In this document: piece after piece, positions 2,545 through 60,716 of the stretch
How the letters are laid out: every line of letters begins with the position of its first letter
Numbering within the stretch: the first letter of the stretch is position 1
NCBI RefSeq assembly: GCF_004010195.1
Contig: NC_057718.1
Coordinates: 8,731,181-8,795,180 of the forward strand
Source of the DNA: Chiloscyllium plagiosum
Taxonomy: Eukaryota
Direction: 5' to 3'
DNA length: 64,000 nt
Notes under the pieces: generated by a model
Told to the model about the DNA's origin: nothing
Databases searched by the model: none
Seen by the model: only the letters and a program-made list of their open reading frames with translations
Program-made: the position numbers and the translations under genes

Positions 2545-3355
2545 CACCCCCCCGCCCACCCCCCCAAGTCCTTACCTACCACACCCCCGTCCAAGGCCCC
2601 AAAGGAGCCTTCCACATCCATCAGAGATTTACCTACACTTCCATCCATGTCATTCACTACATCCGTTGCTTCTAACACCTAAAACTATGCACTTATCTAC
2701 TCCTGTGATGTGAGCTCACCCACACAGGTTCCTCCAAGATCAGCTGTGAATTTCACTGTTTGTTGCAGTCTCCTCTACAGTGGGGAGACTGGACGCCTAT
2801 TTGCAGAATGCTTCAGAAACCATCTCCAGGACACATACACGAAGCAACCCCACTGCCCCTTGGCTGAGCGCTTTAACTCCACCTCCCACTCTGCCAAGGA
2901 CACGCCGGTCCTGGGCCTCCTCCATTGCCAAACCCTTACCAGCCGATGCCTGGAGGAAGAAGGCCCCACCTCCTGCCTTGGGACCCTCTAACCACATCGT
3001 ATCAATGTGGATTTCACCAGTTTCCTTATTTCCCGTTCCCCCCCCCCACCTTATCCCAGTTCCAATCTTCCAACTCGGCACCTCCCTCTTGACTTGTCCT
3101 ACCTGTCCATCTTCCTTCCCACCTATCCGTTCTACCCTCCTCTCTGACCTATCACCTTCTCCCCCACCTTCATCTACTTATTGCACTCTCAGCTACCTTT
3201 CCCCAAACTCTACCCTATCCCACTTATCTCTGACCCCGCCTTGGCCCACATTGCTCATTCCTGATGAAGGGCTTATGCCCAAAATGTTGCTTCTCCTGCT
3301 CCTCGGATGCTGCCTGACTGGCTGTGCTTTTCCAGCACCACACTCTCGACTCTTT
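2545..3355 (+). mobile_element. Penelope-like element (family 1) 3' part, degraded GIY-YIG endonuclease plus terminal region
   Basis: Translation TPVQGPKGAFHIHQRFTYTS..IHYIRC / CSLLYSGETGRLFAECFRNHL (GIY-YIG); pyrimidine-rich spacer; terminal ctgatgaagggcttatgccc...ttttccagcaccacactct. Confidence 0.88.
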
Positions 3356-3534
3356 GATTGACAGTCCAACAATGATACCACCAGGCCAGCACCTTCCCAG
3401 GGGCCACCTGTTAGATGGGCTATTACACCAACACCCCATCTGCTCCCTCAGGTCGCCCTTCAATGTTTTGAAGGAGACGAGAGGATTTATTTACTCCTGA
3501 CTCCTGAACTATAATTTATCTTTCACTTCAAGTC

Positions 3535-3850
3535 ACAGGGAGCTAATGGTCTAGTTATTATCACTGAGCTATTGATCCAGAGACCCAGGTAATATTCTGG
3601 GGTCCTGAATTCAAAATGTAATGGATGGTGGAATTTGAATTCAGTAAAAGTCTGGAGTGAACCATCTATTGATAGCCTTGAAACCACTGTTTGTGATGGA
3701 ACAGAAGAATCATTTAGTTCATTAATGTCCTCAGAGAGGGAAATTGTTGTTGGTATCTGGTGTGACCTAAATATAGTTGACTCTCAAATGCCCTCTGGGT
3801 AATAAATACTGGCCTAGCCAGTGACACCCACACCCTGTGAATAAATAAGA
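3535..3850 (+). mobile_element. tRNA-derived SINE, type B
   Basis: Degenerate A/B-box head, ggtggaatttgaattc core and ggcctagccagtgacacccaca tail. Confidence 0.7.
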
Positions 3851-4029
3851 AACAGATCAACTGGCCACTTGCTATAATTGTGGGATCTAACTGTGCACAA
3901 ATTGGTTTTGGCGTTTGTTAACAGCAATGACTACGCTGCAAACTATGGGCAGTACTAGTGACCTGGGAGAGCTGGATGTCAAGATAAATTTTCAATTCTT
4001 TCTATTTTAGCAAAACCCGATGTCAGTAG

Positions 4030-4860
4030 GTTTCGAAGCTACATCCTGTGGTGGCTGGTGTCACACCTGGCACTGAGGAAAATGTGGTCATCAACTAGCA
4101 ACTATTTTAGCCCTGGGATCTTTTTTTTTGCATAGTTGTTCAAATGATGCGTGCATCACTGGTTCGGCCAGCATTTATTGCCTATCCCTAATTGCCCTTG
4201 AACTGCACAGTTTCCAGGCCATTTCAGAGGCCAGTTAAGAGTCATTTAAGAGGCACTGCTGTGAGTCTGGAGTCACATGTCACAGACACTGGGTAAGGAT
4301 AATAGGTTTCCTTCCTTCAAGGGCATTGGCCACCCAGGTGGGTATTTGGAACAATCAGCAATGGTTACATTTGTCATCAATACAGCAGTTTTTCATTCCA
4401 GATTTTATTGAATTCAAATTTCATCATGTGATTCAATTCTGAACCTTAGTCTGGGACTCGGGACTATGAGCTTAGCGACGCTACCATTATACCATTGTCT
4501 CTCCTAGTACAATGAGAATTTTCAGGGAATAATCCTTGGCCCAGCCATCTGCACTGTTCAGATGACAACGTTCAATTCATATTTCATCCACAAATTAAGC
4601 AGCTCTGGGCATGTCTCAGCAGTCCATGACTCTCCATGTAGAAGATTGGGCAGACAGGTGAGAAAGTATCATTTGCTCAAGAGAAGCAGTGGGTAATTAT
4701 TCATCTCAAACAAGAAAAAAATACCCTGTCATGTCCCATGTAATCCTCAATAATAACTGTCCCAAAAATCCACCATCTTCAGTCTCATTGGAGTCAACAC
4801 TGGCGAGTGATATTCATTCCAACACTGTGGCTCTCATGCTGTGTATACTTAAAGAGCGCA
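4030..4860 (+). mobile_element. Old L2/Crack-like LINE RT fragment, interrupted by a SINE at ~4140-4500
   Basis: Degenerate similarity to the reverse complement of the RT region of the 25760-29810 element. Confidence 0.45.
4140..4500 (-). mobile_element. tRNA-derived SINE, type B
   Basis: ggccagcatttattgcctatccctaattgccc...gagtcacatgt...attgaattcaaattt. Confidence 0.72.
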
Positions 4861-4884
4861 TTAATATTTGTATTTAACATGAAG

Positions 4885-5085
4885 CTGATATAATGGTGAC
4901 CATTCAACCAATGCTAATTGTTGTAAAAACCCATCAGGTTCACTAAAGCCCTTTAGGGAAAGACAATCTGCCATCCTTACTTGGTCTGGCCTACATATGA
5001 CTCTAGATTCACAGTCATGTGATTGACTCTTAATTGTGGACAATTAGAGATGGGTAATCCATGTTGTCCTACTCAGTGATCCTCA
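4885..5085 (+). mobile_element. SINE type B, 3' half
   Basis: ggttcactaaagccctttaggg...ctgccatccttacttggtctggcctacatatgactc. Confidence 0.7.
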
Positions 5086-5089
5086 CTTC

Positions 5090-5671: not shown

Positions 5672-6515
5672 TAGAGTCATAGAGTCATAGAGATGTACAG
5701 CATGGAAACCGACCCTTCGGACCAACCCGTCCATGCCGACCAGATACCCCAACTCAATCTAGTCCCACCTGCCAGCACCCGGCCCATATCCCTCCAAACC
5801 CTTCCTATTCAATCACCCATTGAGATGCCTCTTAAATGTTGCAGTTGTACCAGCCTCCACCACATCCTCTGGCAGCTCATTCCATACACGAACCACCTTC
5901 TGCGTGAAAAAGTTGCCCCTTAGGTCTCTTTTATGTCTTTCCCTTGTCACCCNNNNNNNNNNNNNNNNNNNNNNNNNNNNNNNNNNNNNNNNNNNNNNNN
6001 NNNNNNNNNNNNNNNNNNNNNNNNNNNNNNNNNNNNNNNNNNNNNNNNNNNNNNNNNNNNNNNNNNNNNNNNNNNNNNNNNNNNNNNNNNNNNNNNNNNN
6101 NNNNNNNNNNNNNNNNNNNNNNNNNNNNNNNNNNNNNNNNNNNNNNNNNNNNNNNNNNNNNNNNNNNNNNNNNNNNNNNNNNNNNNNNNNNNNNNNNNNN
6201 NNNNNNNNNNNNNNNNNNNNNNAGCACCTCACATTTATCTGAATTAAACTCCATCTGCCAATTCTCAGCCCATTGGCCAATCTGGTCAAGATCTTGTTGT
6301 ATTCTGAGGTAACCTTTGTCGCTGTCCACTACACCTCCAATTTTGGTGTCATCTGCATTACTAACTGTACCTCTTATGCTCGCATCCAAATCATTTATGT
6401 AAATGACAAAAAGTAGAGGACCCAGCACCGATCCTTGTGGCACTCCACTGGTCACAGGCCTCCACTCTGAAAAACAACCCTGTGTCTTCTACCTTTGAAC
6501 CAGTTCTGTATCCCT
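5672..6515 (-). mobile_element. Young CR1 (HER1-type) LINE 3' part spanning a gap
   Basis: RT motifs SGVPQGSVLGPLLFVIYINDL..ADDTK; RGNFFTQKVVRVWNELP; (ctatgact)n tail. Confidence 0.93.
5953..6222. other. Assembly gap
   Basis: Run of N. Confidence 1.
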
Positions 6516-7319: not shown

Positions 7320-7548
7320 CAAAACAAAACCCAAAGAGTTACAAATGCTGGAAACCAGAAATGAAAGCAGAAATTGCTGGAGAAACTCAGTAGGTCTGAC
7401 AGCATTTGTGGAGAGAGAGTAAGTTAATGTTTCGAGTCTGGGGATTTTTCTTCTGAAGATGAATCTGAAGAATAGGAACTGGATCTAAAACGTTAGCTCT
7501 GCTTTCTCTCTATAGATGCTGCCAGACCTGCTGAGTTTCTGTTTTTGT
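7320..7548. mobile_element. Fold-back mini Penelope-like element (family 3)
   Basis: Inverted arms agaaactcagtaggtctgacagcat / atgctgccagacctgctgagtttct; degenerate ctgaagaa..aaaacgtt core. Confidence 0.7.
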
Positions 7549-9344: not shown

Positions 9345-10028
9345 AGAGTAGAGTCATGGGATGTGCAGAATAGAAGCAGGTCCTTCGGTCCAACACATCT
9401 ACGCCGACCAGATATCCTAAACTAAGCTAGTCCCATTTGCCAGCATTTGGCTCCATCGCCACTCCCTCACCACCCGACGCCTGGAGGAAGAATTCCTCAT
9501 CTTCGCCTCGGCACCCTCCAACCCCATGGCATCAATTTGGACTTCACCAGTTTCCTCATTTCCCTATCCCCCCACCTTACCCTAGTTCCAAACTTCCGGC
9601 TCAGCACCGTCCTCGTGACCTGTCTTATCTGGTCTGCCTTCCCTCCCACCGATTTGCTCACCTTCCTCTCCAACCTATCACCTTCACCCCCACCTCCATC
9701 CACCTATTGCATTCTCAGCTACCTTCCCCCCAGCCCCACCCCCTCCCATTTATCTCTTCACCCCCGAGGTTCCCAACCTCATTCCTGATGAGGGGCTTTT
9801 GTCCGAAATGTCGACTTTCCTGCTCCTCGGATGCTGCCTGACCTGCTGAGCTTTTCCAGCAGTACTCTAATCTTGACCCATATCCCTCCAAATCCTTCCT
9901 GTTCATCTACCCATCCAGATGCCTTTTGAATGCTAAAATTGTACCAGCCTCCACCACTTTCTCTGGCAGCTCATTCCAAACAAGCACTATCTTCTGGGTG
10001 AAAAAGCTGCCCCTTAGGTCCTTTTTAA
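9345..10028 (-). mobile_element. CR1 (HER1-type) 3' end, split by a Penelope insertion
   Basis: agagtcat tail; ctagtcccatttgccagcatttgg resumes at cccatatccctccaaatcc after 9873. Confidence 0.85.
9449..9873 (+). mobile_element. Penelope-like element (family 1) 3' part
   Basis: cgacgcctggaggaagaattcctcatcttcgcctcggcaccctccaacc (GIY-YIG C-terminus) and terminal ctgatgaggggcttttgtccgaaatgtc. Confidence 0.88.
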
Positions 10029-10822: not shown

Positions 10823-10847
10823 GTTGGTACAGACAAATGGAATAGGT

Positions 10848-11052
10848 GAAGGTGAGGACTACAGATGCTGGAGATTAGAGTCGAGAGTGTGGTGCTGGAA
10901 AAGCACAGCAGCTCAGGCAGCATCCGAGGAGCAGGAGAGTCGACATTTTGGAGTGAGTCTGATTCCTGATGAAGGGCTTTTGCCCGAAACGTCGACCCTC
11001 CTGCTCCTCAGATGCTGCCGGACCTGCTGGGTTTTTTTCCAGCGCCACACTT
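10848..11052. mobile_element. Fold-back mini Penelope-like element (family 1)
   Basis: Minus-strand terminal arm followed by plus-strand arm; arms are reverse complements. Confidence 0.85.
10962..10996 (+). ncRNA. Minimal hammerhead ribozyme motif, core intact
   Basis: attc-CTGATGA-A-GGGC-tttt-GCCC-GAAAC-GTC-gac. Confidence 0.65.
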
Positions 11053-11309
11053 TCAATGAATGTAATATTGAGTGAAGTGACCATGTTTAGTCATTCAGTT
11101 TAATCTGCACATTATGACTGACATCATCTGCTGTCAGGCTGAGAGATTGTGGACATAAAAGCAGATTAATTCATTTAGCCTCTATTGAATTTGTTAGCTT
11201 GATACTTGGACAGATGAGTGAGTGGAAAATAAAAATGGTCAATTCATCTGAAAAGCCAGCGTACATTCTAAAGGCAGTTCAAAGGTACTAAAGTCACAAA
11301 GACGGATGA

Positions 11310-14285: not shown

Positions 14286-14321
14286 ATATATTGTACATTC
14301 CACATACAAGACTCACCAACA

Positions 14322-16650: not shown

Positions 16651-16951
16651 TTGTTTCTTTTCCACATCACTTAAATCTATACCCTTTCATCCTTGTTTCT
16701 TTTATGAGCCAATCACTGTTCCCTTGGGTGAAGTCCTCTGTTCTATTTGCCTCCTTTCTTTACCTGGTGATTGTTCTGCCTTAGGCCTGACACAAGGCCT
16801 AACACAAGGCCCAATCAGTTCTGTCAAGAATAAGCTTTAGCTGTTGGTCCCATGACCTCTATTACCCACAAGGACAAAGGCTTCAGATGGATGAGAAGAC
16901 CATAACTTACAAGTCCTCCTTCAAGCCACGCATGCTGACATAGAAGTATAT

Positions 16952-17088
16952 CTAGGCAAAAGTGAGGACTACAGATGCTGGAGATCAGAGTCTAGATTAG
17001 AGTGGTGCTGGAAAAGCACAGCAGGTCAGGGAGCATCGAGGAGCAGGAAAGTCGACGTTTCAGGCAAAAGCCCTTCATCAGGAATGAA
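16952..17088 (-). mobile_element. Mini Penelope-like terminal element (family 1) with hammerhead core
   Basis: Reverse complement attcCTGATGAAGGGCttttGCCTGAAACGTCgac; candidate TSD atagaagtata (16940-16950) / atggaagtata (17092-17102). Confidence 0.85.
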
Positions 17089-18653: not shown

Positions 18654-18753
18654 AACAAGAACAGAAATTGTTGGAAAAGCTCAGCAGGTCAGGCAGCGTC
18701 TGCGGAGAGAAAGCAGAGTTAACGTCTCAGGTGGGGTGACCCTTCCTCAGAAC
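18654..18753 (-). mobile_element. Penelope-like terminal fragment (family 3)
   Basis: Reverse complement gttCTGAGGAAGGGTCaccc..GAGACGTTaactctgctttctc. Confidence 0.7.
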
Positions 18754-19227
18754 CCACCCACTTATCAAAACTTAAATCATCTGATCCGCTATCGTGTTGT
18801 TGGAGCTTGCTGTGCTCAAATTGGCTGTTGTGTTATAAAAAGGGCTGCACTTCCACTGGAGAGGACTTTGGAACATCTCAGTTTGTGAAAGTTGCTGAAC
18901 AACTGCGAGTCTGCCTTTGAGTGGTTCCTCTTCTGAGAAGGTATTGAACGATACATGGATAGAAATAACCCGCAAGGCTATAGGGAGAAAGCAGGAGGTT
19001 GCCAGTAAGTAATCATGTTCATTTGGGCCGAATGGTCTCCCTCTGCTCCATCACACTTCTGTTTTTCAAAATAAAATCCCCGGTTTCAAACTAAAAAGTG
19101 GAAGGAAGCTTTCAGATATTCTGCTCCAAGATCAGTCGGGTTTAGGCTATTAACGAAGCATTATCGACTGGGCCGTCTTCAATGGAAAAAGTTTAAAGAT
19201 AATCATTGAATGTTGAACAGACCCAGC

Positions 19228-19440: not shown

Positions 19441-20428
19441 CCAACACTCCTTTCCACTTTATGCTAAGTCCGAATACATTCAAACAAATGAATGAAGTAT
19501 ATTAATTTTCAGGGCATTGATGGTTCTTTAATGTTAAATTTAATTATTTTTTCGGAACTCCAGAGATAATTCTCAATTTCCTGAAACCACACGGCAAATT
19601 TATTGCACTAGCCAGGCAGTTTTCAAATTCGTTTTTGAGAAGCACAGAGAGGGACTGTCACTTGCTTCTTCATTCTGCAAGGAAGTGTTTGAATCATTTT
19701 GGCGACCTGTTCTCTTGTGGAGCTTTTCACTGGCACTATAATGGCATTTTTTGTGTCCATCGTGAAACCCAGCAGCTGACTTGTACACAGCAAGATCCCA
19801 GAATTGAAGTAACGTTGTCACTGTCTTACTGACCATAGGGCTGCTCGTTCGTTCGAGAGGGGAGACAGATGGTGGTTTAACCTGAGGTCAGTACATCTCA
19901 GGAGAGGGGTGAGGTTGAGAAGGAGAGATCTTCATGGTAACTTGTGCAGGAATTGAACCGTTACTGTTACCATCACTCTGCATTGCAAACTCAGCTATCC
20001 AGCCAACTGAGCTAACCGGCCCTCATCATTCAGACATTAATGACCAGATAATGTCTTTATTTTTAAGTGATATTGAGTGAGGGTTAACTATCGTCCAGGA
20101 CGCATGGGAAAGATCCCCTATTCATTCTCTGATAAGGCTGGGCAGCACATTGCAAGCCTCTGAATTTAGGATGGGTACTTTGCTATCTTACTGTTTTAAT
20201 TCGATCCCCCCTTTTTCCCTCAAGTAAACGCTTTCACACTGACCCGAGCAGGATGGCAGGCAGCGAGACGTCAGTTTAGATGTCAGTTTCTCTCCGTCTC
20301 TGAGATCCGAGTCAGAACACTTTGGCAAAGAGGTTATGTAGACGCTGAGCTGACATGGAAAATTCCAGATTCTGGTTGAGTGATGCTGGAAGAGCACAGC
20401 AATTCAGGCAGCATCCGAAAAGCTCCGA

Positions 20429-20464
20429 AATCGACGTTTCGGGCAAAAGCCCTTCATCAGGAAT
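20429..20464 (-). ncRNA. Minimal hammerhead ribozyme motif, core intact
   Basis: Reverse complement attc-CTGATGA-A-GGGC-tttt-GCCC-GAAAC-GTC-gatt. Confidence 0.65.
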
Positions 20465-20667
20465 AAAGGCAGAGAGCCTGAAGCTTGGAGAGATAGGCTA
20501 GAGGAGGGGGGGGGTGGGGATAGAGTAGCATAGAGTACAATAGGTCAGTGGGGGAGGAGATGAAGGTGATAGGTCAGGGAGGACAGGGTGGAGTGGATAG
20601 GTGGAAAAGGAGATAGGCAGGCCGGACAAGTCCGGACAAGTCAAGGGGATCATGTTGCTGGAGGTTA

Positions 20668-21389
20668 NNNNNNNNNNNNNNNNNNNNNNNNNNNNNNNNN
20701 NNNNNNNNNNNNNNNNNNNNNNNNNNNNNNNNNNNNNNNNNNNNNNNNNNNNNNNNNNNNNNNNNNNNNNNNNNNNNNNNNNNNNNNNNNNNNNNNNNNN
20801 NNNNNNNNNNNNNNNNNNNNNNNNNNNNNNNNNNNNNNNNNNNNNNNNNNNNNNNNNNNNNNNNNNNNNNNNNNNNNNNNNNNNNNNNNNNNNNNNNNNN
20901 NNNNNNNNNNNNNNNNNNNNNNNNNNNNNNNNNNNNNNNNNNNNNNNNNNNNNNNNNNNNNNNNNNNNNNNNNNNNNNNNNNNNNNNNNNNNNNNNNNNN
21001 NNNNNNNNNNNNNNNNNNNNNNNNNNNNNNNNNNNNNNNNNNNNNNNNNNNNNNNNNNNNNNNNNNNNNNNNNNNNNNNNNNNNNNNNNNNNNNNNNNNN
21101 NNNNNNNNNNNNNNNNNNNNNNNNNNNNNNNNNNNNNNNNNNNNNNNNNNNNNNNNNNNNNNNNNNNNNNNNNNNNNNNNNNNNNNNNNNNNNNNNNNNN
21201 NNNNNNNNNNNNNNNNNNNNNNNNNNNNNNNNNNNNNNNNNNNNNNNNNNNNNNNNNNNNNNNNNNNNNNNNNNNNNNNNNNNNNNNNNNNNNNNNNNNN
21301 NNNNNNNNNNNNNNNNNNNNNNNNNNNNNNNNNNNNNNNNNNNNNNNNNNNNNNNNNNNNNNNNNNNNNNNNNNNNNNNNNNNNNNNNN
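20668..21389. other. Assembly gap
   Basis: Run of N. Confidence 1.
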
Positions 21390-22142
21390 GGGAACGGTCT
21401 TTGCGGGAGGCGGAGAGGGGTGGGGAGGGAAATATATCCCTGGTGGTGGGGTCTGTTTGGAGGTGGCGGAAATGTCGGCGGATGATTTGGTTTATGCGAA
21501 GGTTGGTAGGGTGGAAGGTGAGCACCAGGGGCATTCTGTCTTTGTTGCGGTTGGAGGGGTTGGGTCTGAGGGCGGAGGTGCGGAATGTGGACGAGATGCG
21601 TTGGAGGGCATCTTTAACCACATGGGAAGGGAAATTGCGGTCTCTAAAGAAGGAGGCCATCTGGTGTGTTCTGTGGTGGAACTGATCTCACAGTCTCCTT
21701 GCGAGAGCCCCTGGCACTGTTCTTCAGCTGCAAAAAGCTGTGGATCTTCACTTGAAGCTGCAGGAACCTCAATGTCAAAGCTTGTCCCTCTAGTTACTCC
21801 TGCTGTGGAGAGGAGACCCATCACTGAATTTACTTGAACTTCAGGAATTTTTAAAAAAAACAAACCCTGTTTACTTTTCCTTCCCTTCCGAAAGCTATTG
21901 TATCAATGTTTGCCTCAGCCGGCCGATGAAGTGGTGTTTTCCGACTGCGTTAATCTGACACTGACACCTAAGTCTCAGACCTTTTTTTATTATTAGTTAC
22001 TCACAGAATGTGGTTAGCACTGCTGCCTCACAGCACCAGGGACCCCGGTTCGATTCCACCCTCCAGTAACTGTCTGTCTGGAGTCTGCACATTCTCCCAC
22101 TGGGTTTCCTCTGGGTGCTCCAGTTCCTCTCATAGTCCAAAG

Positions 22143-22267
22143 TTAAAAATCAAGCAACACCAGGTTATAGTCCAACAGGTTTCTTTGGAAGTACTAGCTT
22201 TCGGAGCACTGCTTGTGTTGTGAGATTTTTAACTTTGTCCACCCCAGTCCAACACCGGCTCCTCCAA
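22143..22267. mobile_element. Fold-back mini Penelope-like element (family 2)
   Basis: Arms agttaaaaatc..caacac / gtgttgtgagatttttaact; ctagctttcggagc; TSD ctcatagtc(c/a)aaag. Confidence 0.75.
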
Positions 22268-23319: not shown

Positions 23320-23569
23320 TAGAGTCGAGAGTGTGGTGCTGGAAAAGCACAGCAGGTCAGGCAGCATCCGAGGAGCAGGAGAGTCAGTGTTTCGGGCAAG
23401 AAACCTTCATCATCAAGAGCCCTTCCTGATGAAGGGCTCTTGATGATCAAGGTTTCTTGCCCAAAATGTCGATTCTCCTGCTCCTTGGATGCTGCCTGAC
23501 CTGCTGTGCTTTTCCAGCACCACACTCTCGACTCCGATCTCCAGCATCTGCAGTCCTCACTTTCTCCTA
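23320..23569. mobile_element. Fold-back mini Penelope-like element (family 1)
   Basis: About 105-bp inverted arms centred on ctgat (23426-23430); degenerate TSD gctgtgtttagacac / gttgtgttaatacac. Confidence 0.88.
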
Positions 23570-35555: not shown

Positions 35556-36079
35556 TATACACCACACACACACACAAGTTTGTGGGGCGAATTTGTACTT
35601 GCAGAATTACATTTTACTTTGCTCAAAAACTGCATGAATCCATGTAAGATACTATAAATCCGTTTTTTAGATTCGAATCAGTCTGCCTATTGTGGCATAG
35701 ACAGCCTCACAGGGAAGCTAACACCTTCAATACATTATCTGGACCGATATGACACCAATTGTTAAAGTTCACTTGAGAGTGCAACTTTTAAAAAAGGTTT
35801 TGCGATTTACGTATGAATGAACTGAAACCAACATGGTCATTCTAAAAGATGAAAGACTTAACAAACAATCCAGGTCTTTTTTAATGTATAATTTCAGTTA
35901 CATCACACGAAACTTTTGTTATAAATTCTGAGTCTTACAATCTTATTCTCCACAGCCATCTGATGAAGGAGCAGTGCTCCAAAAGCTAGTGTGCTTCCAA
36001 TTAAACCTGTTGGAGTATAACCTGTCGTTGTGTGATTTTTAACTTTGTACATCCCAGTCGAACACTGGCATCTCCAAAT
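35556..36079 (+). mobile_element. Penelope-like element (family 2) 3' non-coding part, inserted in a CR1 3' end
   Basis: ctgatgaaggagcagtgctccaaaagctagtg core; terminal gatttttaactttg shared with 22143/43236; 11-bp TSD ccttactccat (35543-35553 / 36080-36090). Confidence 0.8.
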
Positions 36080-37108: not shown

Positions 37109-37339
37109 TGCTTAACCTGTGTTTATGTTATTCTGTGGATAATCCATTATTCCTTTACTTCATTCACCCTGGAAAATGCAAGGTCACAGTAGTTATTTTC
37201 AGATTGTAATTGGTGTAATTAGTATTTAAAAGCAAGAGCCAGGTAGCAATGTCTCCACAGACAGAGGCTGTGGAGAGAGTTTTGATGTGACTGAGATCTT
37301 TTAAAACTATCCAACCTGGAGAGATGCCTATCATCCCTA

Positions 37340-37770
37340 AAAACAACAGAAATTGCTAGAGAGACTCAGCAGGTCTGACAGCAGCTGTGAAGAGAAAGCA
37401 GAGTTAATCTTTTGAGTTCAGCAACCCTTCTTCAGAACTGATAGTTGCTCGGAAAAGGTGGTATACATGCTGAAAACAGGGGGGTGTTTGGGGGTGAAGG
37501 GAGACAGGATAGATGGAGATGACACCCATCTGCAGTAGGCTAGGCTTCCTGCATTCGATAATCACCAACTCCAACTATCTGCTCTCTCTTGACCCCCTGT
37601 TATCAGCATCACCTTTTCCTACCCGCTATCAGTTCCGAAGGAAAGTCATTGAAATTGAAATGTTAACTCTGCTTTCTCTCCACAGATCCTGCCACACCTG
37701 CTGAAATTCTCCAGCAATTCCTGTTTTGGTTTTAGATTTCCAGCATCCACAGTTCTTTGTTTTATTTTAG
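37340..37770. mobile_element. Fold-back Penelope-like element (family 3)
   Basis: Inverted arms (agaaagcagagttaa / ttaactctgctttctc). Confidence 0.75.
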
Positions 37771-37899
37771 TTCCATCATCCTGGTTTATTAGCCCAGGTT
37801 TCTGATGTAACCAGTCCAGAAACACAGTGACTTACATTATAGCTTCCAACCATATCCGCTACTTAAGAACAGCACTGGACGACGCTACTTATAGACACA

Positions 37900-38107
37900 C
37901 ACCCGCTGTTTTCAGCGCATATACCACCTTTTCTGAGCAACTATCAGTTCTGAAGAAGGGTCACTGGACCCAAAACATTAACTCTGCTTTCTCTCCAAAG
38001 ACACTGCCAGATCTGCTAAGTCTCTCGAGCAATTTCCGTTGTTCTTAGGAATGAGAGGCGTCTCTCCAGGTTGGATGGTTTAAAAGATCTCAGTCACTTC
38101 AAAGCTC
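37900..38107 (+). repeat. Inverted duplicate of 37275-37480 (family 3 Penelope arm plus flank)
   Basis: Reverse-complement match including ~65 bp beyond the element; core agttCTGAAGAAGGGTCactgGACCCaAAACaTTaact. Confidence 0.8.
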
Positions 38108-40007: not shown

Positions 40008-40218
40008 AAAGGAAAATCTGCAGATGTTGGAAACCAAAGTAGATAGGCAGGAGGCTGGGAGAACACAGCAAGCCAGGCAGTGTCAGGAGGTGGAGAAGTT
40101 GACATTTCAAGTGTAACCCTTCTTCAGGACTCAAGAAGGATTGATACCCGAAACGTTGACATCTCCACCTCCTGATGCTGCCTGGCTTGCTGTGTTCTTC
40201 CAGCCTCCTGCCTGTCTG
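40008..40218. mobile_element. Fold-back mini Penelope-like element (family 4)
   Basis: About 80-bp inverted arms; left arm reverse complement agtcCTGAAGAAGGGTtacACTTGAAATGTCaact; right arm ACCCGAAACGTTgaca. Confidence 0.8.
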
Positions 40219-43232: not shown

Positions 43233-43305
43233 ATGTCGCTCCGAAAGCTAGTGTGCTTCCAATTAAACCTGTTGGACTATAAACTGGTATTGTGTGATTT
43301 TTAAC
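43233..43305 (+). mobile_element. Mini Penelope-like fragment (family 2)
   Basis: cgctccGAAAGCTAgtg..; 12-bp TSD tcaattcaagtt (43221-43232 / 43306-43317). Confidence 0.8.
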
Positions 43306-43927: not shown

Positions 43928-44120
43928 AAGTCAGGTGGCACCAGGTTATAGTCCAACAGATTTATTTAAAACCGTAAGCTTTTGGAGCGCAGCCCCTTCA
44001 TCAGATGAAGTCACTCCACCCAATGAAGGAGCAGCCCTCTGAAAGCTTATGATTTAAATAAACCTGCTGGACTAATACTTGACTTCTGACTTTGTCCACC
44101 CCAGTCGAACATCATGGCTA
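43928..44120. mobile_element. Fold-back mini Penelope-like element (family 2-related)
   Basis: Inverted arms; cores ctgatgaaggggctgcgctccaaaagctt and atgaaggagcagccctctgaaagctt; 10-bp TSD caatctgata (43918-43927 / 44121-44130). Confidence 0.75.
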
Positions 44121-44807: not shown

Positions 44808-45570
44808 TATCAGTTAGATAAATGCAAGGTACTGCATTTTGGAAAGGCAAATCTTAGCAGGACTTATACACTTAATGGTAAGGTCCTAGGTAGTTTTGCC
44901 GAACGAAGAGACCTTAGAGTGCAGGTTCATAGCTCCTTGAAAGTAGAGTCGCAGGTAGATAGGATAGTTAAGAAGGGATTTGGTATGCTTTCCTTTATTG
45001 GTCAGAGAATTGACTATAGGAGTTGGGAGACCACGTTGTGGCTGTACAGGACATTGGTTAGGCCACTGTTGGAATACTGCATTCAATTCAGGTCTCCTTG
45101 CTATTGAAAGATGTTGGGAAACTTGAAAAGGTTTAGAAAAGATTTACAAGGATGTTGCCAGGGTTGGAGGATTTGAATTTAAGGGAGAGGTTGAATAGGC
45201 TGGGCTGTTTTCCCTAGAGCTTTGGAGGCTGAGGGTGATCTTTTAGAGGTTTATAAAATCATGAGGGGCAAGGCTAGGGTGAATATCCCCAGAGTAGGGG
45301 AGTCGAGGACTAGAGGGCATAGGTGAGAGGGAAAAGATTTAAAAGGGGCAACCTTTTCACACAGAGGGTGGTGCATGTATGGAATGAGCTGCCAGAGGAA
45401 ATGGTGGAGGCTGGTACAATTACAACATTTAAAAGGCAACTGGATGGATATATGAATAGGAAGGATTTAGAGGGATATGGGCCGAGTACTGGCAGGTGGG
45501 ACTAGATTGGGTTGGGATATCTGGTCAGCATGGACGAGTTGGACTGAAGAGTCTGTTTCTCTGCTGTACT
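44808..45570 (+). mobile_element. CR1 (HER1-type) 3' fragment
   Basis: KCKVLHFGKAN...LYRTLVRPLLEYCIQFRSP; FTQRVVHVWNELP. Confidence 0.92.
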
Positions 45571-46143: not shown

Positions 46144-47305
46144 ATTCAAGTGTGAATTAATCTTTACATTTCTGCCATTGCTATGAATTACCATTTATTT
46201 ATTGTAATGAGTCCAGCAATCTTCTTGCTGCCCAGTGCAATGATATTCTGCAAATGGCAAATGTTAGTTTTCTTCCAATCTTCATTTCAACTGTTAAATG
46301 TCGCTATCACAGGCCATTTAGGTTGTTCGAAACTAACTCAACTCACTGAAAATAGATGATTCCTTTCATCTTTGAGATTTTCCCTATATTTCCGTGACTC
46401 GTTATTGCCAATTATGATGGTGAAACACCAATGGATCAGTTTGAAATTGTTTGAACACTCTGAGAACTCATGAAGTGTTCTTGATACATGAGTCTCTGCA
46501 GCCCTAGATGTTGAAGGATCGCACTAAGATTCAAAGCATCTCTCTCTGCCTCACAGCGAACATTAAGTAATGTTGTGTTAAATAGACTCACCAGTAGTCA
46601 TTAAATTATGGTCAGCTGCCCCAGTAGCATTTACCAGTTCCGAATTTTTCACTCAAGTCAGGGAAAAGAAAACGTGCAGTAATTCTACTCGCTAAATTAT
46701 CCTTTTAAAAGAAGCATATTCGAAAGTCTACATCCGAGGAGCAGGAGAGTCCACGTTTCAGGCATAAGCCACTCATTATCCCGACTTGGAATTACATCAC
46801 TGTTCCTTCACTGTCACTGTTTCACAATCCTGCAACTCCCCACCCCAATCCCCTCCCCAGTATTGTGGGAATACCGACACTACATGGAGTCTACCACCAC
46901 CAACTCCAGTGCAATAAATACTTGCCCAGCCAGTGATGTGCATGTCTCATGAGTGAATGAGAAAAATAGAATTCTGAAGCTTGGTGTTGATGCAGATACC
47001 TCTGATACCTCTTCCAGCCTTATAACTAACTTTTGAAGAACTTGCTATCCCTCTAGTTCTGCTTTCCACTATTGACAGTTGCAGTTTCAGTAGCCAAGAC
47101 TCTAATTTCTAGAATCCCTGATTTCAGTTTGCCCATCTCACTTTCCTCCTCTTAGATGCCCCTTCAAGAATCACACATTTTGCCACTGGCCCTAAAATTT
47201 CTGCCTTTGACTCTGTGTTAACTTTTACAAAGTATTACTAATTACCACACAGAAACAAGCCATTCTGTATCACTGTTTAAGTTCTTGCCTCTCACCCCTC
47301 TGTCA

Positions 47306-49120: not shown

Positions 49121-49782
49121 TTTCCTTATCTTTTTCTCCTGGCCTTGTAAGAGTTGCTTCCATTCTTGAAGGAGAAAGATCGTCAAATATGAGGGAATGA
49201 GAGGATGAGGAGCTATCACTTTCTGTGAAGGATTAAACATGCCCAGGAAACGAAGACCCTCTTATTTGCTCAGGGACGTTCATATTAAGGTGGAGAGAAA
49301 CCACTGGCAGAAAACTCAAACCAAACCCAAAATTGTAAAAAATTCAAGATGCTGTATCCATTATTCATCAACAACGTGATCGAGATGTATATTTTACCAC
49401 TTACTCCTGATTGTATGATGGGTAGGGAAAACATGGTGCCTTGTGCTTTTTCATTCTCTACTCAAATGTACATAACTCTGAAAGGTTGAGAATGTTGAAA
49501 TGATGTAAGGTTGTTTTCCAACTGAGTTTCTAACTTAGCAAGCGCTGAAGGAACTGTTTTGTTTTAAAAGATAACATTTCAAACTGATATTTTCATTAAA
49601 TTGGCAGGTTCGGTCTGTGAGTCGGCTTAGAATTCAATTTCCAAACGTTACAACAATATGTTCAGCAATGTTATCGCACACCTCTAGAGCTGGTGCGACT
49701 TGAACCAGGGTCTCCTCATGTAGAGCTGAAAATGTGTTGCTGGAAAAGCACAGCAGGTCAGGCAGCATCCAAGGAACAGGAG

Positions 49783-49818
49783 AATCGACGTTTCGGGCAT
49801 AAGCCCTTCTTCAGGAAT
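49783..49818 (-). ncRNA. Minimal hammerhead ribozyme motif, core intact
   Basis: Reverse complement attc-CTGAAGA-A-GGGC-ttat-GCCC-GAAAC-GTC-gatt. Confidence 0.65.
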
Positions 49819-49900
49819 GAGGAAAGTGTGCCCAGCAGGCTAAGATAAAAGGTAGGGAGGAGGGATTTGGGGGAGGGGCGTTGGAAATGCGATAGGTGGA

Positions 49901-50498
49901 NNNNNNNNNNNNNNNNNNNNNNNNNNNNNNNNNNNNNNNNNNNNNNNNNNNNNNNNNNNNNNNNNNNNNNNNNNNNNNNNNNNNNNNNNNNNNNNNNNNN
50001 NNNNNNNNNNNNNNNNNNNNNNNNNNNNNNNNNNNNNNNNNNNNNNNNNNNNNNNNNNNNNNNNNNNNNNNNNNNNNNNNNNNNNNNNNNNNNNNNNNNN
50101 NNNNNNNNNNNNNNNNNNNNNNNNNNNNNNNNNNNNNNNNNNNNNNNNNNNNNNNNNNNNNNNNNNNNNNNNNNNNNNNNNNNNNNNNNNNNNNNNNNNN
50201 NNNNNNNNNNNNNNNNNNNNNNNNNNNNNNNNNNNNNNNNNNNNNNNNNNNNNNNNNNNNNNNNNNNNNNNNNNNNNNNNNNNNNNNNNNNNNNNNNNNN
50301 NNNNNNNNNNNNNNNNNNNNNNNNNNNNNNNNNNNNNNNNNNNNNNNNNNNNNNNNNNNNNNNNNNNNNNNNNNNNNNNNNNNNNNNNNNNNNNNNNNNN
50401 NNNNNNNNNNNNNNNNNNNNNNNNNNNNNNNNNNNNNNNNNNNNNNNNNNNNNNNNNNNNNNNNNNNNNNNNNNNNNNNNNNNNNNNNNNNNNNNNNN
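49901..50498. other. Assembly gap
   Basis: Run of N. Confidence 1.
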
Positions 50499-50518
50499 CT
50501 GCTGGGCACACTTTCCTC

Positions 50519-50554
50519 ATTCCTGAAGAAGGGCTTATGCCCGAAACGTCGATT
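50519..50554 (+). ncRNA. Minimal hammerhead ribozyme motif, core intact
   Basis: attc-CTGAAGA-A-GGGC-ttat-GCCC-GAAAC-GTC-gatt. Confidence 0.65.
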
Positions 50555-50709
50555 CTCCTGTTCCTTGGATGCTGCCTGACCTGCTGCGCTTTTCCAGCAA
50601 CACATTTTCAGCTCTGATCTCCAGCATCTGCAGTCCTCACTTTCTCCTCCTCATCAAGAGTTAGAAACATTATCACTGTGCCACAAGAGTCAGTTTAAAA
50701 TTGTTTTAG

Positions 50710-52211: not shown

Positions 52212-52687
52212 TGTGCCACAAGAATCCACTCAAAATTCATCTTAAGTATTTTAAGCGGTGTTACTACACTCTATGGAGTAAGTGGGACAAGCCACATTAT
52301 TTTAATGACCTACTGATGCTGACGTAATCCCATTTCTGTTTAATGATATTTGCGAACAATTTCAAGAGATTAGATTTTCTTTCCGAAACAAATTGTTCTA
52401 CCTGAGTTAACCCTTGAATTGGTGTGATCGCTGTTAGCTACTTTTGTTTGTGATTGCCGTGGAACTTCACACATTGGAATAACAAGGCAACGCTGAGATA
52501 AGGTGAATTTTGTTTTCTCTCAGAGAGTCTTGAGTTTTTGGAACTCTCTTTCAAAGTGGGTAGACCTCAAGAGTTTAATTATGATGATGTGCTAACTCTC
52601 ATCAGAAACACAGCTACTGTTGAGTTAACAATAAGCAAGCACCTCACATATCACAAACCTGTGATATCACAAACATAACACAAACCT

Positions 52688-52805
52688 TTCATTCCTGATG
52701 AAGGGGTTATGCCCAAAACGTTGGCTCTCCTGCTCCTCAGATGCTGTGCTTTTCCAGCAATACACTCTCAGCTCTGTCCGGTATCTGCAGTGCTCACTTT
52801 CTCCT
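52688..52805 (+). mobile_element. Mini Penelope-like terminal element (family 1)
   Basis: attcctgatgaaggggttatgcccaaaacgtt; 14-bp TSD acatatcacaaacc. Confidence 0.82.
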
Positions 52806-54509: not shown

Positions 54510-55020
54510 ATAGAGTCATAGAGATGTACAGCATGGAAACAGACCCTTCGGTCCAACCCGTCCATGCTGACCAGATATCCCAACCCAATCTAGTCCCACC
54601 TGCCAGCACCCAGCCCATACCCCTCCAAACCCTTCCTATTCATATACCCATCCAAATGCCTCTTAAATCTTGCAATTGAACCAGCCTCCACCACATCCTC
54701 TGGCAGTTCATTCCATACACCTACCACTCTCTGACTGAAAAAGTTGCCCCTTAGGTCTCTTTTATATCTTTCCCCTCACACCCTAAACCAATGCCCTCTA
54801 GTTCTGAACTCTCCAACCCCAGGGAAAAGACTTTGTCTATTTACCCTATCCATGCCCCTCATGATTTTATAAACCTCTATACGGTCACCCCTCAGCATCC
54901 AACTCTCCAGGGAAAACAGCCCCAGCCTGTTCAGCTTCTCCCGAAAGCTCAAATGCTCCAACCCTGGTAACATTCTTGTAAATCTTTTCTGAAGCCTTTC
55001 AAGTTTCACAACATCCTTCT
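54510..55020 (-). mobile_element. CR1 (HER1-type) 3' fragment
   Basis: KLERLQKRFTRMLPGLEHLSFREKLNRLGLFSLE. Confidence 0.92.
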
Positions 55021-58247: not shown

Positions 58248-58495
58248 TTAGAATCCCTGCAGTGTGGAAATAGGCCCTTTGGCCCAACAAGTCCATACCG
58301 ACCCTCTAAAGAGTAAATCATCCAGACCTATTCCCCTAACTAATGCACCTAACCTACACATCCCTGAATACTACGGGGTAATTTAGCGGAGAGAATGTAC
58401 AAACTCCACACAGGCAGTGGCCGAAGGCTGGAATCGAACCTAGGTCCCTGGCACTGTGAGGCAGCAGCGCTAACTACTGAGCCACCGTGCTGCCC
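58248..58495 (-). mobile_element. HE1-type SINE (internal deletion)
   Basis: Head and tail present, part of the core missing. Confidence 0.88.
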
Positions 58496-60022
58496 AAAAG
58501 GCAGCCTTTGTATCACACCTTTTACCTCTTGCCTTCATCATTTTTCTTGTCTACCCGAACCATTTCCATACCTTGGTTTCCTGAACTTGGGTCATCATTT
58601 CTATTTGGCTAATATCATCATTTACTAGCAGAGCCACCCCTCCACCTTCTCCTAGCTTCCTGTACTTCCTAAATGAGCTGCAATCTTCAGGCTCCAACCC
58701 GTGTCACCCTGCATCCTCTGCAATGGCTATCAAAATATGTTTGTTTATTTTTGTTTGTGCTTTCAGTTCATCTGTTTTGTTTTAATGTTCCACATTCAGA
58801 TACAGAGCCTTTATAGATTCATAGATTGATACGGTGCAGAAAAGGCCCTTCAGCCCATCGAGTGTACACTGACAATAACTACCACTAAAGATGCACTAAC
58901 CCAATGACCTGCACTTGTCCCATTCCCTGAATGTAATGATATTTGAAGCACTCCATCCAAATATTTTTTATAGGTTGTAAGGTTTCCAGCCTCCACTACC
59001 TTCCCAGACAATGCCTTCCAGATCCCCATCACTTGCTGAGTGAAAACATTTTTTTTTCAAATCCCCTCTGAATCTCCTAAAACTATGCCCCCCTCGTGAC
59101 TGACCCCTCAACCAAGGGGAACAGCTGCTCTCTATTCACCCTGTCCATATCTTGTACACCTCAATCATGCCCCCCCCCCACCCCGCCCCAGTCTTCTCTG
59201 CTCTAAAGAAAATATTCCAAGCCTATCTAGTCTCTCCTTATAGCTCAACTTCTCCATCCCAGGCAACATCCTAGTGAACCTGCTCTGTACCCCCTCCAGT
59301 GTTATCACATCCTTCCTGTTGTGAGGTGACCAGAATTGTGCACAGTACACCAGCTGTGGCCTAACCAACACTCTGTATGCCAACGTTACCTCCTTACTCA
59401 TACTCTATACCGTGACTATGAAAACAAGTGTCCAACATGCCTTCTTTACTATCCTATTCACATACTCTGCCGATTTCAGGGATCTGTGAATAATTACCCC
59501 AAGATCCCTCTGTTCGTTGAAGCCACCCAGTGTCCTGCCATTCAATAAATACTCCCTCATTTTGTTTCTTCTTCCAAAGTGCATCACCTTGCACTTAGTG
59601 AGCTAAATCTGCCAATAGTCTGTCCATCTGACCAACCCGTCTTCCTGTAACCTACAACCATCTTCTTTGTTATTAACCACTCCAAGAAACTTGGTGTCAT
59701 CTGCAAATTTGTCCAACATTCCCCCCATATTTTCATCAATATCATCTACGTATATAACAAACATAAAGGGTCCCAGTATTGATCCTTGTGGTACACCACT
59801 AGGGCATTGGCCCCCTATCATTCAATCAGCTTTCTACCACAACATTTTGTGCCGTATTGCTTCACCATTTTCTGTTCCAAGCTTCCTTCTATTCCATGGG
59901 ATTTACCATTCGCAATCTGGCTCCCATATGGGACCTTTCCAAAAGCTTTGCTAAAATCCATATAAATTGCATCAACTGAACTTCCCTCATCCACACACTT
60001 GATCACATTTTCAAATAAATTT

Positions 60023-60398
60023 GGGTGGCACAGTGGCTCAATGGTTAGCACTGCTGCCTCACAGCACCAAGGTCCTCGGTTCAATTCCAGCCTCAGGTGA
60101 CTGTCTGTGTGAAGTTTGCACGTTCTCCCCGTATCTGTGTGGGTTTCCTCCGGGTGCTCCGGTTTCCTCCCACAGTCCAAAGATGTGCAGTTGAGGTGGA
60201 TTAGCCATGTTAAATTGCCCGTAGTGTTCAGGGATGTGCAGGTTAGGTGAATTGGCCATGCTAAATTGCCCATAATGTTAGGTGTATTAGTCAGAGGTAA
60301 ATGTAGGGGAATGAGTCTGGGTGGGTTACTCTTCGGAGGGGCGGTGTGGACTTGTTGGGCCGAAGGGCCTGTTTCCATACTGTAGAGAATCTAATCTA
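60023..60398 (+). mobile_element. Full-length young HE1-type SINE
   Basis: Intact A/B boxes, core, duplicated internal unit, (ctaat)n tail. Confidence 0.94.
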
Positions 60399-60539
60399 AA
60401 AAAAATTGTTAGGCATGAGCTTCCTCCAACAAAGCCATGCTGGCTATCCCTAATTAAACCATGCCTTTCCAACTAGATATTAATTCGCTCCTTCAGAATT
60501 TTCTCCAATAGTTTCCCTCCCACTGACGTGAGACTCACC

Positions 60540-60716
60540 GAGTGTGGCGCTGGAAAAGCACTGCCGGTCAGGCAGCATCCAAGGAATATTCCAGATGAAG
60601 AGCTTATGCCCGAAAAGTTGATTCTCCTGTTCCTTGGATGCTGCCTGACCTGCTGTGCTTTTCCAACACCACACATTTTGACTCTGATCTCCTGCATCTG
60701 AAGCCCTCACTTTCCC
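60540..60716. mobile_element. Fold-back mini Penelope-like element (family 1), degenerate core
   Basis: ggtcaggcagcatccaaggaa / ttccttggatgctgcctgacc; candidate TSD tgagact. Confidence 0.8.

Follow-up and report, generated by a model that had tools for sequence, protein, structure and literature searches.

Minimal hammerhead motifs in probable 3'-terminal modules of Penelope-like elements in a shark genome

The repeats in a 64,000-nucleotide stretch of the Chiloscyllium plagiosum genome (contig NC_057718.1, hereafter the window) raise the question whether a small recurring motif is a hammerhead ribozyme of Penelope-like elements (PLEs), as had been predicted from the letters of the DNA, and how such a short ribozyme would cut. 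The window was found to hold four related repeat families with a minimal hammerhead motif, represented by about 24 copies or fragments. In all four families CUGANGA is followed by an extra A, stem II and GAAA, and helix III, as predicted, has no loop and is just a self-complementary tetranucleotide (15.1-15.2-16.2-16.1), AGCU in family 2 and ACGU in the other three. Of 45 distinct sequences, 44 have A as the extra purine expected after A9 and one has G. The strict descriptor matched 6 window sites and none in 300 first-order Markov simulations, the loose pattern gave 11 matches against 4.1 expected, and the covariance model R1 gave 15 matches at E<0.001. The core (boxes CUGANGA and GAAA; H17, not G) was exact at 6 window sites and had at most one mismatch at 9.

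Matches to the core were also counted in the genome of the same species (3.56 Gb), with 15,996 for family 1, 1,786 for family 2, 179 for family 3 and 1,814 for family 4; reversed-pattern controls gave 0 matches. Thousands of genomic copies of families 1, 2 and 4 carry the exact core. The sequences were re-read at every site named in the original prediction and all were present as described, while the statement that the core is invariant apart from CpG decay is not strictly true, other changes being seen at 60585(+), 18713(-) and 37628(+). The Rfam hammerhead families share the catalytic core with the shark motifs, yet no model matched at any threshold tried, neither at the gathering score nor at E<=10, over the whole window or a 101-nt stretch. 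The proposed check against the Rfam hammerhead model is thus unworkable, and the minimal form falls outside the curated Rfam hammerhead models. The motif and the first reading of it are confirmed at the level of the sequence, on which the window appears littered with dead shark PLE copies.

Intact family 1 hammerheads were located in two head-to-head pairs and in one 5'-truncated PLE copy. The pair at 10832..11055 has its hammerhead at 10959-11001(+) (core 10966-10993; R1 score 56 bits), with the predicted cut site between 10993 and 10994, and a 5'-truncated inverted partner at 10832-10951(-). The truncated copy at 20356..21687(-) comprises an ORF remnant (21390-21687), an N run (20668-21389) and a non-coding 3' region with the hammerhead at 20425-20467(-) (core 20433-20460; 58.6 bits), for which the cut is predicted between 20433 and 20432 and the short 3' end lies at about 20365. 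The pair at 49726..50648 flanks an N run (49901-50498) and carries hammerheads at 49779-49821(-) (core 49787-49814) and 50516-50558(+) (core 50523-50550), with loop UUAU, A at N7 and 60.9 bits each. A copy with the optional tail at 16951..17088(-) has a C11.1>U change in its hammerhead at 17046-17088 (core 17054-17081; 59.8 bits).

The partner at 10832-10951(-) was additional to the sites first listed, as were the following family 1 copies. A 5'-truncated PLE copy at 2571..3341(+) has an EN-domain ORF remnant (2571-3015; tblastn to PLE proteins, E 1e-9) followed by a family-1-type hammerhead at 3254-3296 with G12>A, C15.2>U and C17>U (43.9 bits). The copy at 9589..9866(+) has G as its extra base and C15.2>U (hammerhead 9778-9820; 45 bits), and that at 52685..52746(+) has G12>A and C17>U (hammerhead 52688-52730; 41 bits). 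An inverted pair at 60544..60718 combines a decayed hammerhead with U4>A at 60585-60627(+) (31.7 bits) with a partner at 60544(-), and a fragment at 46731..46789(-) is 5'-truncated within its hammerhead (46744(-)). In an inverted pair of a variant form at 23333..23568 (R1 match 23419-23478(+), 34.1 bits; partner 23378(-)) loop 2 holds a 20-nt insert, itself able to form a hairpin.

Family 2 is represented by a copy with the optional tail at 35953..36075(+), whose hammerhead at 35953-35996 (core 35960-35988, helix III AGCU; predicted cut after A17) is complete but has G12>A, and by a 5'-truncated copy at 43236..43305(+) which begins in the 3' strand of stem II; the window thus has no intact copy of this family. 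Two further sites were added, a decayed inverted pair at 43940..44080 and a fragment at 22142..22207(-) truncated within the hammerhead and adjoining an inverted partial copy. A complex insertion of family 3 at 37277..38107 contains one inverted copy with its hammerhead at 37398-37442(-) and two direct copies 315 nt apart, at 37628-37672(+), with tail, and 37943-37987(+). The hammerhead at 37950(+) has G12>A and G16.2>A; that of the copy at 18669..18757(-) is more decayed, with GAGA and a broken stem II (18713-18757, core 18721-18750; 34.7 bits). The copies at 37398(-) and 37628(+) are new to the list of family 3, together with a strongly decayed family 3-like copy at 7459..7540(+) (13.5 bits, E 0.099). 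Family 4 had been described as a composite of two arms, and the inverted pair at 40018..40209 does consist of two decayed arms, 40093-40134(-) and 40133-40157(+) (51.4 and 16.6 bits), but the undecayed genomic form ends GUC-GAC and not GUU-GAC.

The effect of sequence divergence on the stems was analysed across the families. Six of the 11 base pairs (2.1-1.1, 2.2-1.2, 2.3-1.3, 10.3-11.3, 10.4-11.4 and 15.2-16.2) were altered on both sides between families, 10.1-11.1 was G-C in all four, and 38 of 40 family-level cells were paired (permutation P = 4e-5), in a sample of only four lineages of which families 3 and 4 are close. For the alignment of families 1, 3 and 4 the covariation score was 0.224 against 0.159 in shuffles (0 of 500 reached it) and at most 0.087 when the partners were slid, whereas the number of pairs with both-side change (4) was reached by 156 of 500 shuffles. 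The covariation claimed for stems I and II is borne out by the both-side changes and the score but not by the pair count. Stem I of family 1 is imperfect, as stated, with a helix I of 2 bp, a mismatch and 1 bp. The selection on structure that was read from this covariation would apply only to lineages that are still copying; the inserted copies decay freely, at CpGs.

The linkage of the hammerheads to PLEs was examined through the ORFs upstream. Decayed ORFs were found on the same strand 130-270 nt upstream of the hammerheads of families 1 and 4 and of the 3254 copy, with reverse-transcriptase (RT) motifs, a Zn-finger-like C-x4-C-x2-C linker and GIY-YIG; on sequence grounds this is the PLE architecture for families 1 and 4. 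The closest proteins were from Chiloscyllium sharks, and the homologues carry, as precomputed domains, RVT_1, PF28514 and PF26215 with or without GIY-YIG. The window frame 21390-21687(-) leads, after the N run, into a family 1 hammerhead. Its 99-aa piece had 57,717 first-look candidates in the genome, 150 of which were scored and were 91-100% identical to it, and a family 1 hammerhead came next on the same strand in 11 of 16 fetched genomic loci with the piece. An unmasked genomic copy reads C-x4-C-x2-C and then LLYIGETG, and the linker was seen in loci L048, L009 and L060. The GIY-YIG profile PF01541 scored 22.7 bits (cut-off 22.6) in locus L054, where the ORF ends 201 nt before the hammerhead, and 32 bits, above the Pfam cut-off, in locus L009. 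The hammerhead lies 134-270 nt past the ORF match in loci L048, L049 and L054, and 246 nt past it in the window (3015 to 3261). Upstream of the EN region, locus L036 read by eye contains what we take to be RT motifs; the RVT_1 profile gave no score on the fragments.

Family 4 hammerheads follow decayed EN-like frames, 48-54% identical to the family 1 protein, after 203 and 205 nt (loci L060 and L065). The single ORF of EN+ PLEs, with RT and then a C-terminal GIY-YIG, was thus found in family 1 and as diverged ORFs upstream of family 4 and not in families 2 and 3, for which 0 of 20 sampled loci (10 per family) had an RT/EN domain within 1.5 kb. The Penelope identity proposed for all families stands for families 1 and 4, with a decayed ORF upstream on the same strand; families 2 and 3 were never seen beside an ORF and owe the PLE label to the 3'-module anatomy that they share. 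All four families have two 3' ends about 33 nt apart through an optional tail, each end being seen in about half of the copies (counted by eye). Inverted 5' partners were seen in 5/40, 4/13, 1/11 and 4/11 copies, partial tandems had units of 315 nt (window), 406 nt (locus L012, with a 10-bp target duplication) and about 480 nt (loci L006 and L004), and nearly all copies are dead as 5'-truncated, tandem or head-to-head insertions. Tail, inverted partners, partial tandems and target duplication are in accordance with the PLE passages of PMC8557442 and PMC11167929. A CX2-5CxxC linker before GIY-YIG is assigned in the relevant passage of PMC8557442 to Neptune/Nematis and not to Penelope/Poseidon, and the linker motif may point to a clade of the Neptune/Nematis type rather than Penelope/Poseidon proper.

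Overall, the prediction of minimal type I hammerheads of PLEs was supported. The sites are most probably (about 0.85) the 3'-terminal modules of several PLE lineages in this orectolobiform-type shark genome, with a minimal hammerhead predicted to cut as a dimer. Such a module would comprise a type I hammerhead of minimal form (2-4 bp in helix I, 4-5 bp in helix II, a single unpaired A following A9, and a loop-less helix III with self-complementary A-C-G-U or A-G-C-U), 60-90 nt downstream with a conserved hairpin, and the two alternative 3' ends set by the tail. By analogy with the literature, two palindromic tetranucleotides, in a tandem pseudo-LTR transcript or in two RNAs, would pair into a shared helix III; each core would then cut after position 17, probably helped by the element's protein or host factors, and the cutting would trim a read-through transcript. 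The motif would be maintained by selection only while a lineage copies itself and would decay after insertion. The dimer requirement for loop-less variants, put forward originally as an inference, is on comparison with the literature a proposal already published. Against this reading, two-strand folding of family 1 preferred an overlapping GUCGAC palindrome to the ACGU helix III, by which the cut site would be buried, and the in-vitro activity of such dimers is described as low in part of PMC4209133.

The cutting itself is where the alternatives diverge. None of 96 copies covering the downstream block begins at the cut site, the read ends of one poly(A) single-cell RNA run, a library ill-suited to the purpose and with reads from both strands, form no pile there, and passages of PMC11167929 report that insertion in vitro does not require the ribozyme and is unaffected by its mutants, and that no RNA-seq reads end at the cut site. 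The 5' ends of truncated copies cluster instead at the 5' edge of helix I (by eye, 6 of the 9 boundaries of family 1 that fall within 60 nt upstream, and 5 of 11 copies of family 3). These observations would suit a motif conserved for another role, as a protein-binding or 5'-terminal module, a promoter or translation-start element, or a selfish PLE passenger, so that the core rarely or never cuts in vivo; PMC8557442 adds, in part, that Naiad PLEs thrive without hammerheads, which 'may simply parasitize PLEs'. Such a role is quite unlikely, as the exact catalytic core (G12, G8, G5, H17) is kept across four families with diverged flanks, the stems change by compensation, which a pure protein-binding sequence would not need, and cleavage of related motifs is published, albeit weak or protein-assisted. 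In a further, improbable version the multiplied unit, present in tens of thousands of copies, would be a short 'hammerhead-first' RNA (about 110-170 nt), with the hammerhead mainly a 5'-terminal module and not mainly a position-17 cutter. The 5' end of this RNA would lie exactly at the 5' strand of helix I and its 3' end at either reverse-transcription entry site, the two sites being flanked by the conserved stem that links GAUGCUG with the beginning of the optional tail; the hammerhead would serve to set or shield the RNA end, or to signal a reverse transcriptase stop or template switch.

A ribozyme that works as a monomer, the element's protein stabilising the two-base-pair loop-less helix III so that dimers are not obligatory, is likewise rather unlikely. 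According to passages of PMC11167929 a single-hammerhead RNA stayed uncut unless the element's protein was present, and the cut needed C3 and G8 and not the nuclease active site, but pairing of two RNA molecules was still possible at the 500 nM of that assay. A loop-less hairpin is impossible, and self-complementarity of the tetranucleotide holds in all four families, family 2 having G-C in place of C-G. Tentative, at somewhat less than even odds, is the proposal that non-autonomous elements of retrozyme or SINE type account for families 2 and 3 and for the family 1 tandem units of 400-480 nt; such elements would have borrowed the 3' module of PLEs, whose proteins would copy them in trans. The absence of RT/EN domains in the 20 sampled loci and the short tandems described above, one with a target duplication, speak for it, as does the derivation of animal non-LTR retrozymes from PLE pseudo-LTRs proposed in part of bioRxiv 10.64898/2026.07.22.740005, which gives a mean unit of 363 bp in the single chondrichthyan surveyed. 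However, heavy 5' truncation by itself gives the same picture, the sample was 10 loci per family with 1.5-kb flanks, and family 4 looked alike until two longer copies revealed its ORF.

The dimer-cutting PLE module, the preferred reading, leaves knowledge of the ribozyme itself unchanged, the minimal hammerhead of this kind having been described in 2014. It extends the host range of PLEs with hammerheads to cartilaginous fish and reveals one shark lineage that is very young and extremely abundant, in which about 16,000 ribozyme cores are identical and ORF pieces agree at 91-100%. This youth and abundance make the genome a good natural data set for asking the role of the minimal hammerhead and for training a covariance model of the form that Rfam does not recognise.

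Among known systems, the type I hammerheads of newt satellite 2 and Schistosoma Sm-alpha have, like the shark motifs, a weak helix III with palindromic ends, and show the activity as dimers in multimers that is predicted for the shark, following the double-hammerhead model of Forster et al. 1988, in the parts of PMC4209133 and PMC6765202 concerned; they keep a helix III of 1-2 bp with a 2-4-nt loop and loop-loop tertiary contacts, and the shark motifs have neither. Animal non-LTR retrozymes likewise consist of short tandem units with a type I hammerhead each (PMC7229834 and passages of bioRxiv 10.64898/2026.07.22.740005), the latter source reporting one positive chondrichthyan species, whereas the shark copies are mostly dispersed single modules with PLE-type 3' ends. 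The Poseidon element PAc of Anolis carolinensis, as described in part of PMC11167929, similarly has a hammerhead about 65-100 nt upstream of two reverse-transcription start sites, which set an optional 30-40-bp tail, and an ORF with GIY-YIG EN. Its ORF starts inside the hammerhead, unlike in the shark elements, where the AUG inside CUGAUGA opens only 17 codons in family 1 or 8 in family 2, and the shark linker is that given by PMC8557442 to Neptune/Nematis, not to the Penelope/Poseidon side of PAc.

The closest likeness is to the minimal hammerheads of metazoan PLE pseudo-LTRs (Cervera and de la Pena 2014, PMC4209133), for which the relevant passages describe the same absence of helix III and loop 3 with palindromic 15.2-16.2, the same G10.1-C11.1 and short helix I, compensatory changes among several consensus families in one genome, copies in the thousands of which most are solitary and truncated, and opposite-strand pairs 100-700 bp apart. 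The hosts given there include fish, coelacanth and frog, sharks not being named in those passages. Helix II is 4-5 bp in the shark motifs against 7-8 bp in Schistosoma, and family 1 of the shark, with about 16,000 exact cores, exceeds the totals reported there for coelacanth (4,000) and Xenopus (9,000).

The hammerhead motifs listed in the original prediction were present in the window at the places named. The family 1 motif is (A/U)UUC-CUGA(U/A)GA-A-GGGC-loop-GCCC-GAAA-CG-UC followed by GA. Reading of the sequence revealed intact copies at 10966-10993(+), 20433-20460(-), 49787-49814(-) and 50523-50550(+), and one carrying C11.1>U at 17054-17081(-). The family 2 pair was upheld for one member: the copy at 35960-35988(+), with a 5-bp stem II, AGCU as helix III and A at position 17, is complete but carries G12>A, while the copy at 43236(+) is truncated inside stem II. 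The window copies of family 3 (37950+, 18721-) and the family 4 arms (around 40093-40157) are decayed, and intact forms of both were found elsewhere in the genome. The GUU triplet attributed to family 4 proved to be a CpG-decay state, the undecayed genomic triplet being GUC-GAC. About 24 copies or fragments of the four families occur in the 64 kb, more than the original prediction listed; the further ones belong to family 1 (3254+, 9778+, 23419+/23378-, 46744-, 52688+, 60585+/60544-, 10832-10951-), family 2 (22142-22207-, 43940-44080) and family 3 (7459+, 37398-, 37628+). The inverted pair at 23378-23478 is a family 1 variant in which loop 2 carries an insert of 20 nt, common to both arms and able to fold into a 6-bp hairpin.

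The original prediction read the sequence correctly and carefully, and the motif is real, well beyond what chance would give. Eleven matches to the loose pattern CTGAWGA-N6-30-GAAA were found against 4.1 expected, a number reached by one of 100 shuffles. A strict descriptor, which demanded the exact core with one extra base at most, 3 bp or more in stem II and 2 bp or more in helix I, both pairs of helix III and H17, gave 6 window sites and none in 300 first-order Markov simulations. The covariance model R1, built from families 1, 3 and 4 and run with filters off, matched 15 window sites at E<0.001; the copy of family 2, which was not used in building R1, was unmatched at E<=10. The Rfam search of the whole window and of a 101-nt stretch, at the gathering score and at E<=10, returned no hammerhead family, and the Rfam matches in the window were miRNA-like only, on inverted repeats.

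The covariation of the stems was analysed on 45 distinct sequences (20, 8, 8 and 9 per family). The families were parsed with hand-written patterns because MAFFT displaced family 2 by one column. The commonest states showed two-sided change between families at 6 of 11 pairs, namely 2.1-1.1 (C-G / U-A), 2.2-1.2 (U-A / A-U), 2.3-1.3 (G-C / C-G), 10.3-11.3 (G-C / A-U), 10.4-11.4 (C-G / G-C / U-A) and 15.2-16.2 (C-G / G-C). Family 1 has U-U at 2.3-1.3 and a weak helix I, in accordance with the imperfect stem I predicted for it. Across families, 38 of 40 family-level cells were paired (P = 4e-5 on permuting the 3' letters among families). For families 1, 3 and 4 (23 sequences), 89.8% of the cells were paired against 85.9% in shuffles, and the covariation score was 0.224 against 0.159, neither value being reached in 500 shuffles; slid partners scored at most 0.087. 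The number of pairs with two-sided change in this set was 4, which was equalled by 156 of the 500 shuffles. The sample comprises four lineages, two of them close, and the covariation support is real but modest.

The link to Penelope-like elements (PLEs) was analysed through open reading frames (ORFs). Of the 173 window ORFs of 75 aa or longer, 168 were searched with Pfam, which found LINE pieces only, Exo_endo_phos at 1-369(-) and, within 51043-51994(-), RVT_1 (51623-51994) and ALKBH8_N (51043-51543), and no PLE-type reverse transcriptase (RT) or endonuclease (EN) domain; the other five ORFs lie in the simple repeat at 31234-31885. PF01541 over the shark's own genome gave one match, locus L009, among 150 scored of 14,403 candidates, and this weak GIY-YIG match shares 71% identity with window 21406-21540(-) across 45 residues. 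The minus-strand order at this place is ORF remnant (21390-21687), N run (20668-21389), C-rich non-coding region, intact family 1 hammerhead and 3' end. For the 99-residue ORF piece (21390-21687(-)), a first look at the genome gave 57,717 candidates, of which the 150 scored were 91-100% identical, and a same-strand family 1 hammerhead lies downstream of it in 11 of 16 fetched loci. An ORF copy without the N run carries a C-x4-C-x2-C motif followed by LLYIGETG. In another copy, motifs of RT type lie upstream. GIY-YIG exceeded the Pfam cut-off (22.7 vs 22.6 bits) in an ORF ending 201 nt before a hammerhead, and RVT_1 had no score on any fetched ORF fragment. The closest database proteins came from Chiloscyllium punctatum at 85-90% identity, followed by those of Rhincodon and Stegostoma; among 65 homologues listed, 28 bear RVT_1, PF28514 and PF26215, and four bear GIY-YIG.

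Local tblastn over the retrieved sequences placed two family 4 hammerheads 203 and 205 nt past decayed EN-like frames, whose identity to the family 1 protein is just 48-54%, and the family-1-like copy at 3254 lies 246 nt past another diverged EN remnant (2571-3015). With the family 1 ORF, the family 4 frames and this remnant, at least three PLE lineages are tied to these hammerheads. For families 2 and 3, 86 ORFs around 20 loci with 1.5-kb flanks gave no Pfam domain match. The predicted Penelope identity is thereby borne out for families 1 and 4, which adjoin PLE-type ORFs, but not for families 2 and 3, which were never beside one in those 20 loci. Two pairs of hammerheads on the same strand, spaced by about 2.0-2.1 kb in loci L010 and L011, were considered as ORF-bearing elements and proved to be unrelated mosaics.

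Runs of N occur within or next to PLE copies in the window (20668-21389, 49901-50498, 5953-6222) and in loci L034-L056. In 11 of the 16 ORF-piece loci the run begins at one identical position of the element, immediately ahead of the endonuclease linker, and differs in length. These runs could represent sequence that was withheld or masked, or the assembly may fail there systematically; according to PMC8557442, PLE structures break short-read assemblies.

The 3' module has two alternative ends about 33 nt apart in all four families, each found by eye in roughly half of the copies. Head-to-head partners accompany 5/40, 4/13, 1/11 and 4/11 of the hammerhead-bearing copies of the four families. 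Partial tandems occur at 315 nt (window 37277-38107) and at about 480 nt (loci L006 and L004). Locus L012 (G000:C1:3866500-3870500, minus strand 1673-2171) holds a clean insertion of 1.23 tandem units, the unit being 406 nt of non-coding family 1 sequence; the insertion runs from hammerhead C3 to the short 3' end, with a target duplication of 10 bp on its flanks. All 9 minimum-energy folds computed for families 1, 3 and 4 pair GAUGCUG, 3' of the cut site, with the CAGCAUC that opens the optional tail, as at 16956-17053(-) and 50551-50648(+) of the window and L006:1529-1626; inside the stem lie a GCUG-N8-CAGC hairpin and also the short 3' end. This stem showed no covariation in the three families because both strands are conserved; it may form a reverse-transcriptase entry structure. 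None of the 96 copies covering the downstream block starts at the cut site. By eye, the 5' boundaries of truncated copies cluster instead at the 5' strand of helix I, no more than about 5 nt away (family 1: L003, L010, L012, L013, L027, L030; family 3: L015, L016, L019, L021, L022); the automatic boundary count overstates this clustering for family 4, in which 5 of 11 copies have a common diverged C-rich upstream region.

Regarding the mode of action, two copies would pair through the palindromic tetranucleotide, form a helix III in common and cut in multimeric transcripts. Lunse, Weinberg and Breaker reportedly have a paper on dimeric PLE hammerheads. According to PMC4209133 and PMC6765202, a hammerhead that lacks the loop of helix III is unable to close alone, and two such hammerheads can pair by this tetranucleotide and cut in multimeric transcripts. 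The in-vitro activity of the dimers is given as low (PMC4209133, text available in part), and for the one PLE studied biochemically, PMC11167929 states that cutting depends on the protein of the element and that insertion can proceed without cutting. What the present analysis shows is the motif, where it sits in the 3' modules of PLEs, and that it is conserved. Other results count against this mode of action or are of no help to it, among them the absence of copies starting at the cut site. The hammerhead dimer was not recovered by two-strand folding, which favoured a GUCGAC palindrome overlapping the helix III tetranucleotide; since the cut site lies in this preferred palindrome, the scissile bond would be hidden. 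This second palindrome spans the cut site as GUCGAC in families 1 (window 10989-10999) and 4 and GUUAAC in family 3. A raw poly(A) single-cell RNA run yielded 841 reads, derived from both strands and without any accumulation of read ends at the cut site; a second raw run yielded none. In mapping at 90% likeness over window 20356-20640, reads and contigs fell on just two short blocks, one being the hammerhead (20426-20465) and the other the downstream block (20386-20415), with about ten-fold lower depth between and beside them; these blocks are the parts common to subfamilies.

The core patterns, exact or CpG-tolerant, gave 15,996, 1,786, 179 and 1,814 matches for families 1 to 4 in the 3.56-Gb genome, with 0 for each reversed control. 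By eye, both G12 and G16.2 were lost at 55 and kept at 11 of 100 listed family 3 places (of 179), and G12>A was seen at 23 of 100 listed family 2 places (of 1,786). As these losses show, copies are not under selection once inserted. An unrelated, very common repeat of at least 360 nt also has at least 12 window copies on both strands (54586-54960, 61503-61851, 45165-45509, 42743-43081, 34685-35002, 5755-5951 and others); in locus L011 a family 2 insertion splits one copy of it with a 5-bp target duplication.

The coverage of Cervera and de la Pena 2014 (PMC4209133), in its available text, is of fish, coelacanth and frog; sharks were not found named in that text, a literature search on hammerheads in shark Penelope elements brought up no relevant paper, and its supplements may list shark sequences, as may those of a 2026 preprint on retrozymes in one chondrichthyan (bioRxiv 10.64898/2026.07.22.740005, available in part). 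Every structural point of the finding is already in the accessible text of PMC4209133. The min-HHRs (minimal type I hammerheads) described there likewise lack helix III and have G10.1-C11.1 and a palindromic 15.2-16.2; covarying families per genome, opposite-strand pairs, thousands of solitary copies and the dimer model are also reported. The two 3' ends match the optional tail of 30-40 bp that is described as unique to PLEs in PMC11167929 and PMC8557442. The shark linker C-x4-C-x2-C, compared by motif, fits the CX2-5CxxC given for Neptune and Nematis, not Penelope or Poseidon, in the latter source. The hammerhead is of a kind already known, and the shark sequences are a new and unusually abundant member of it.
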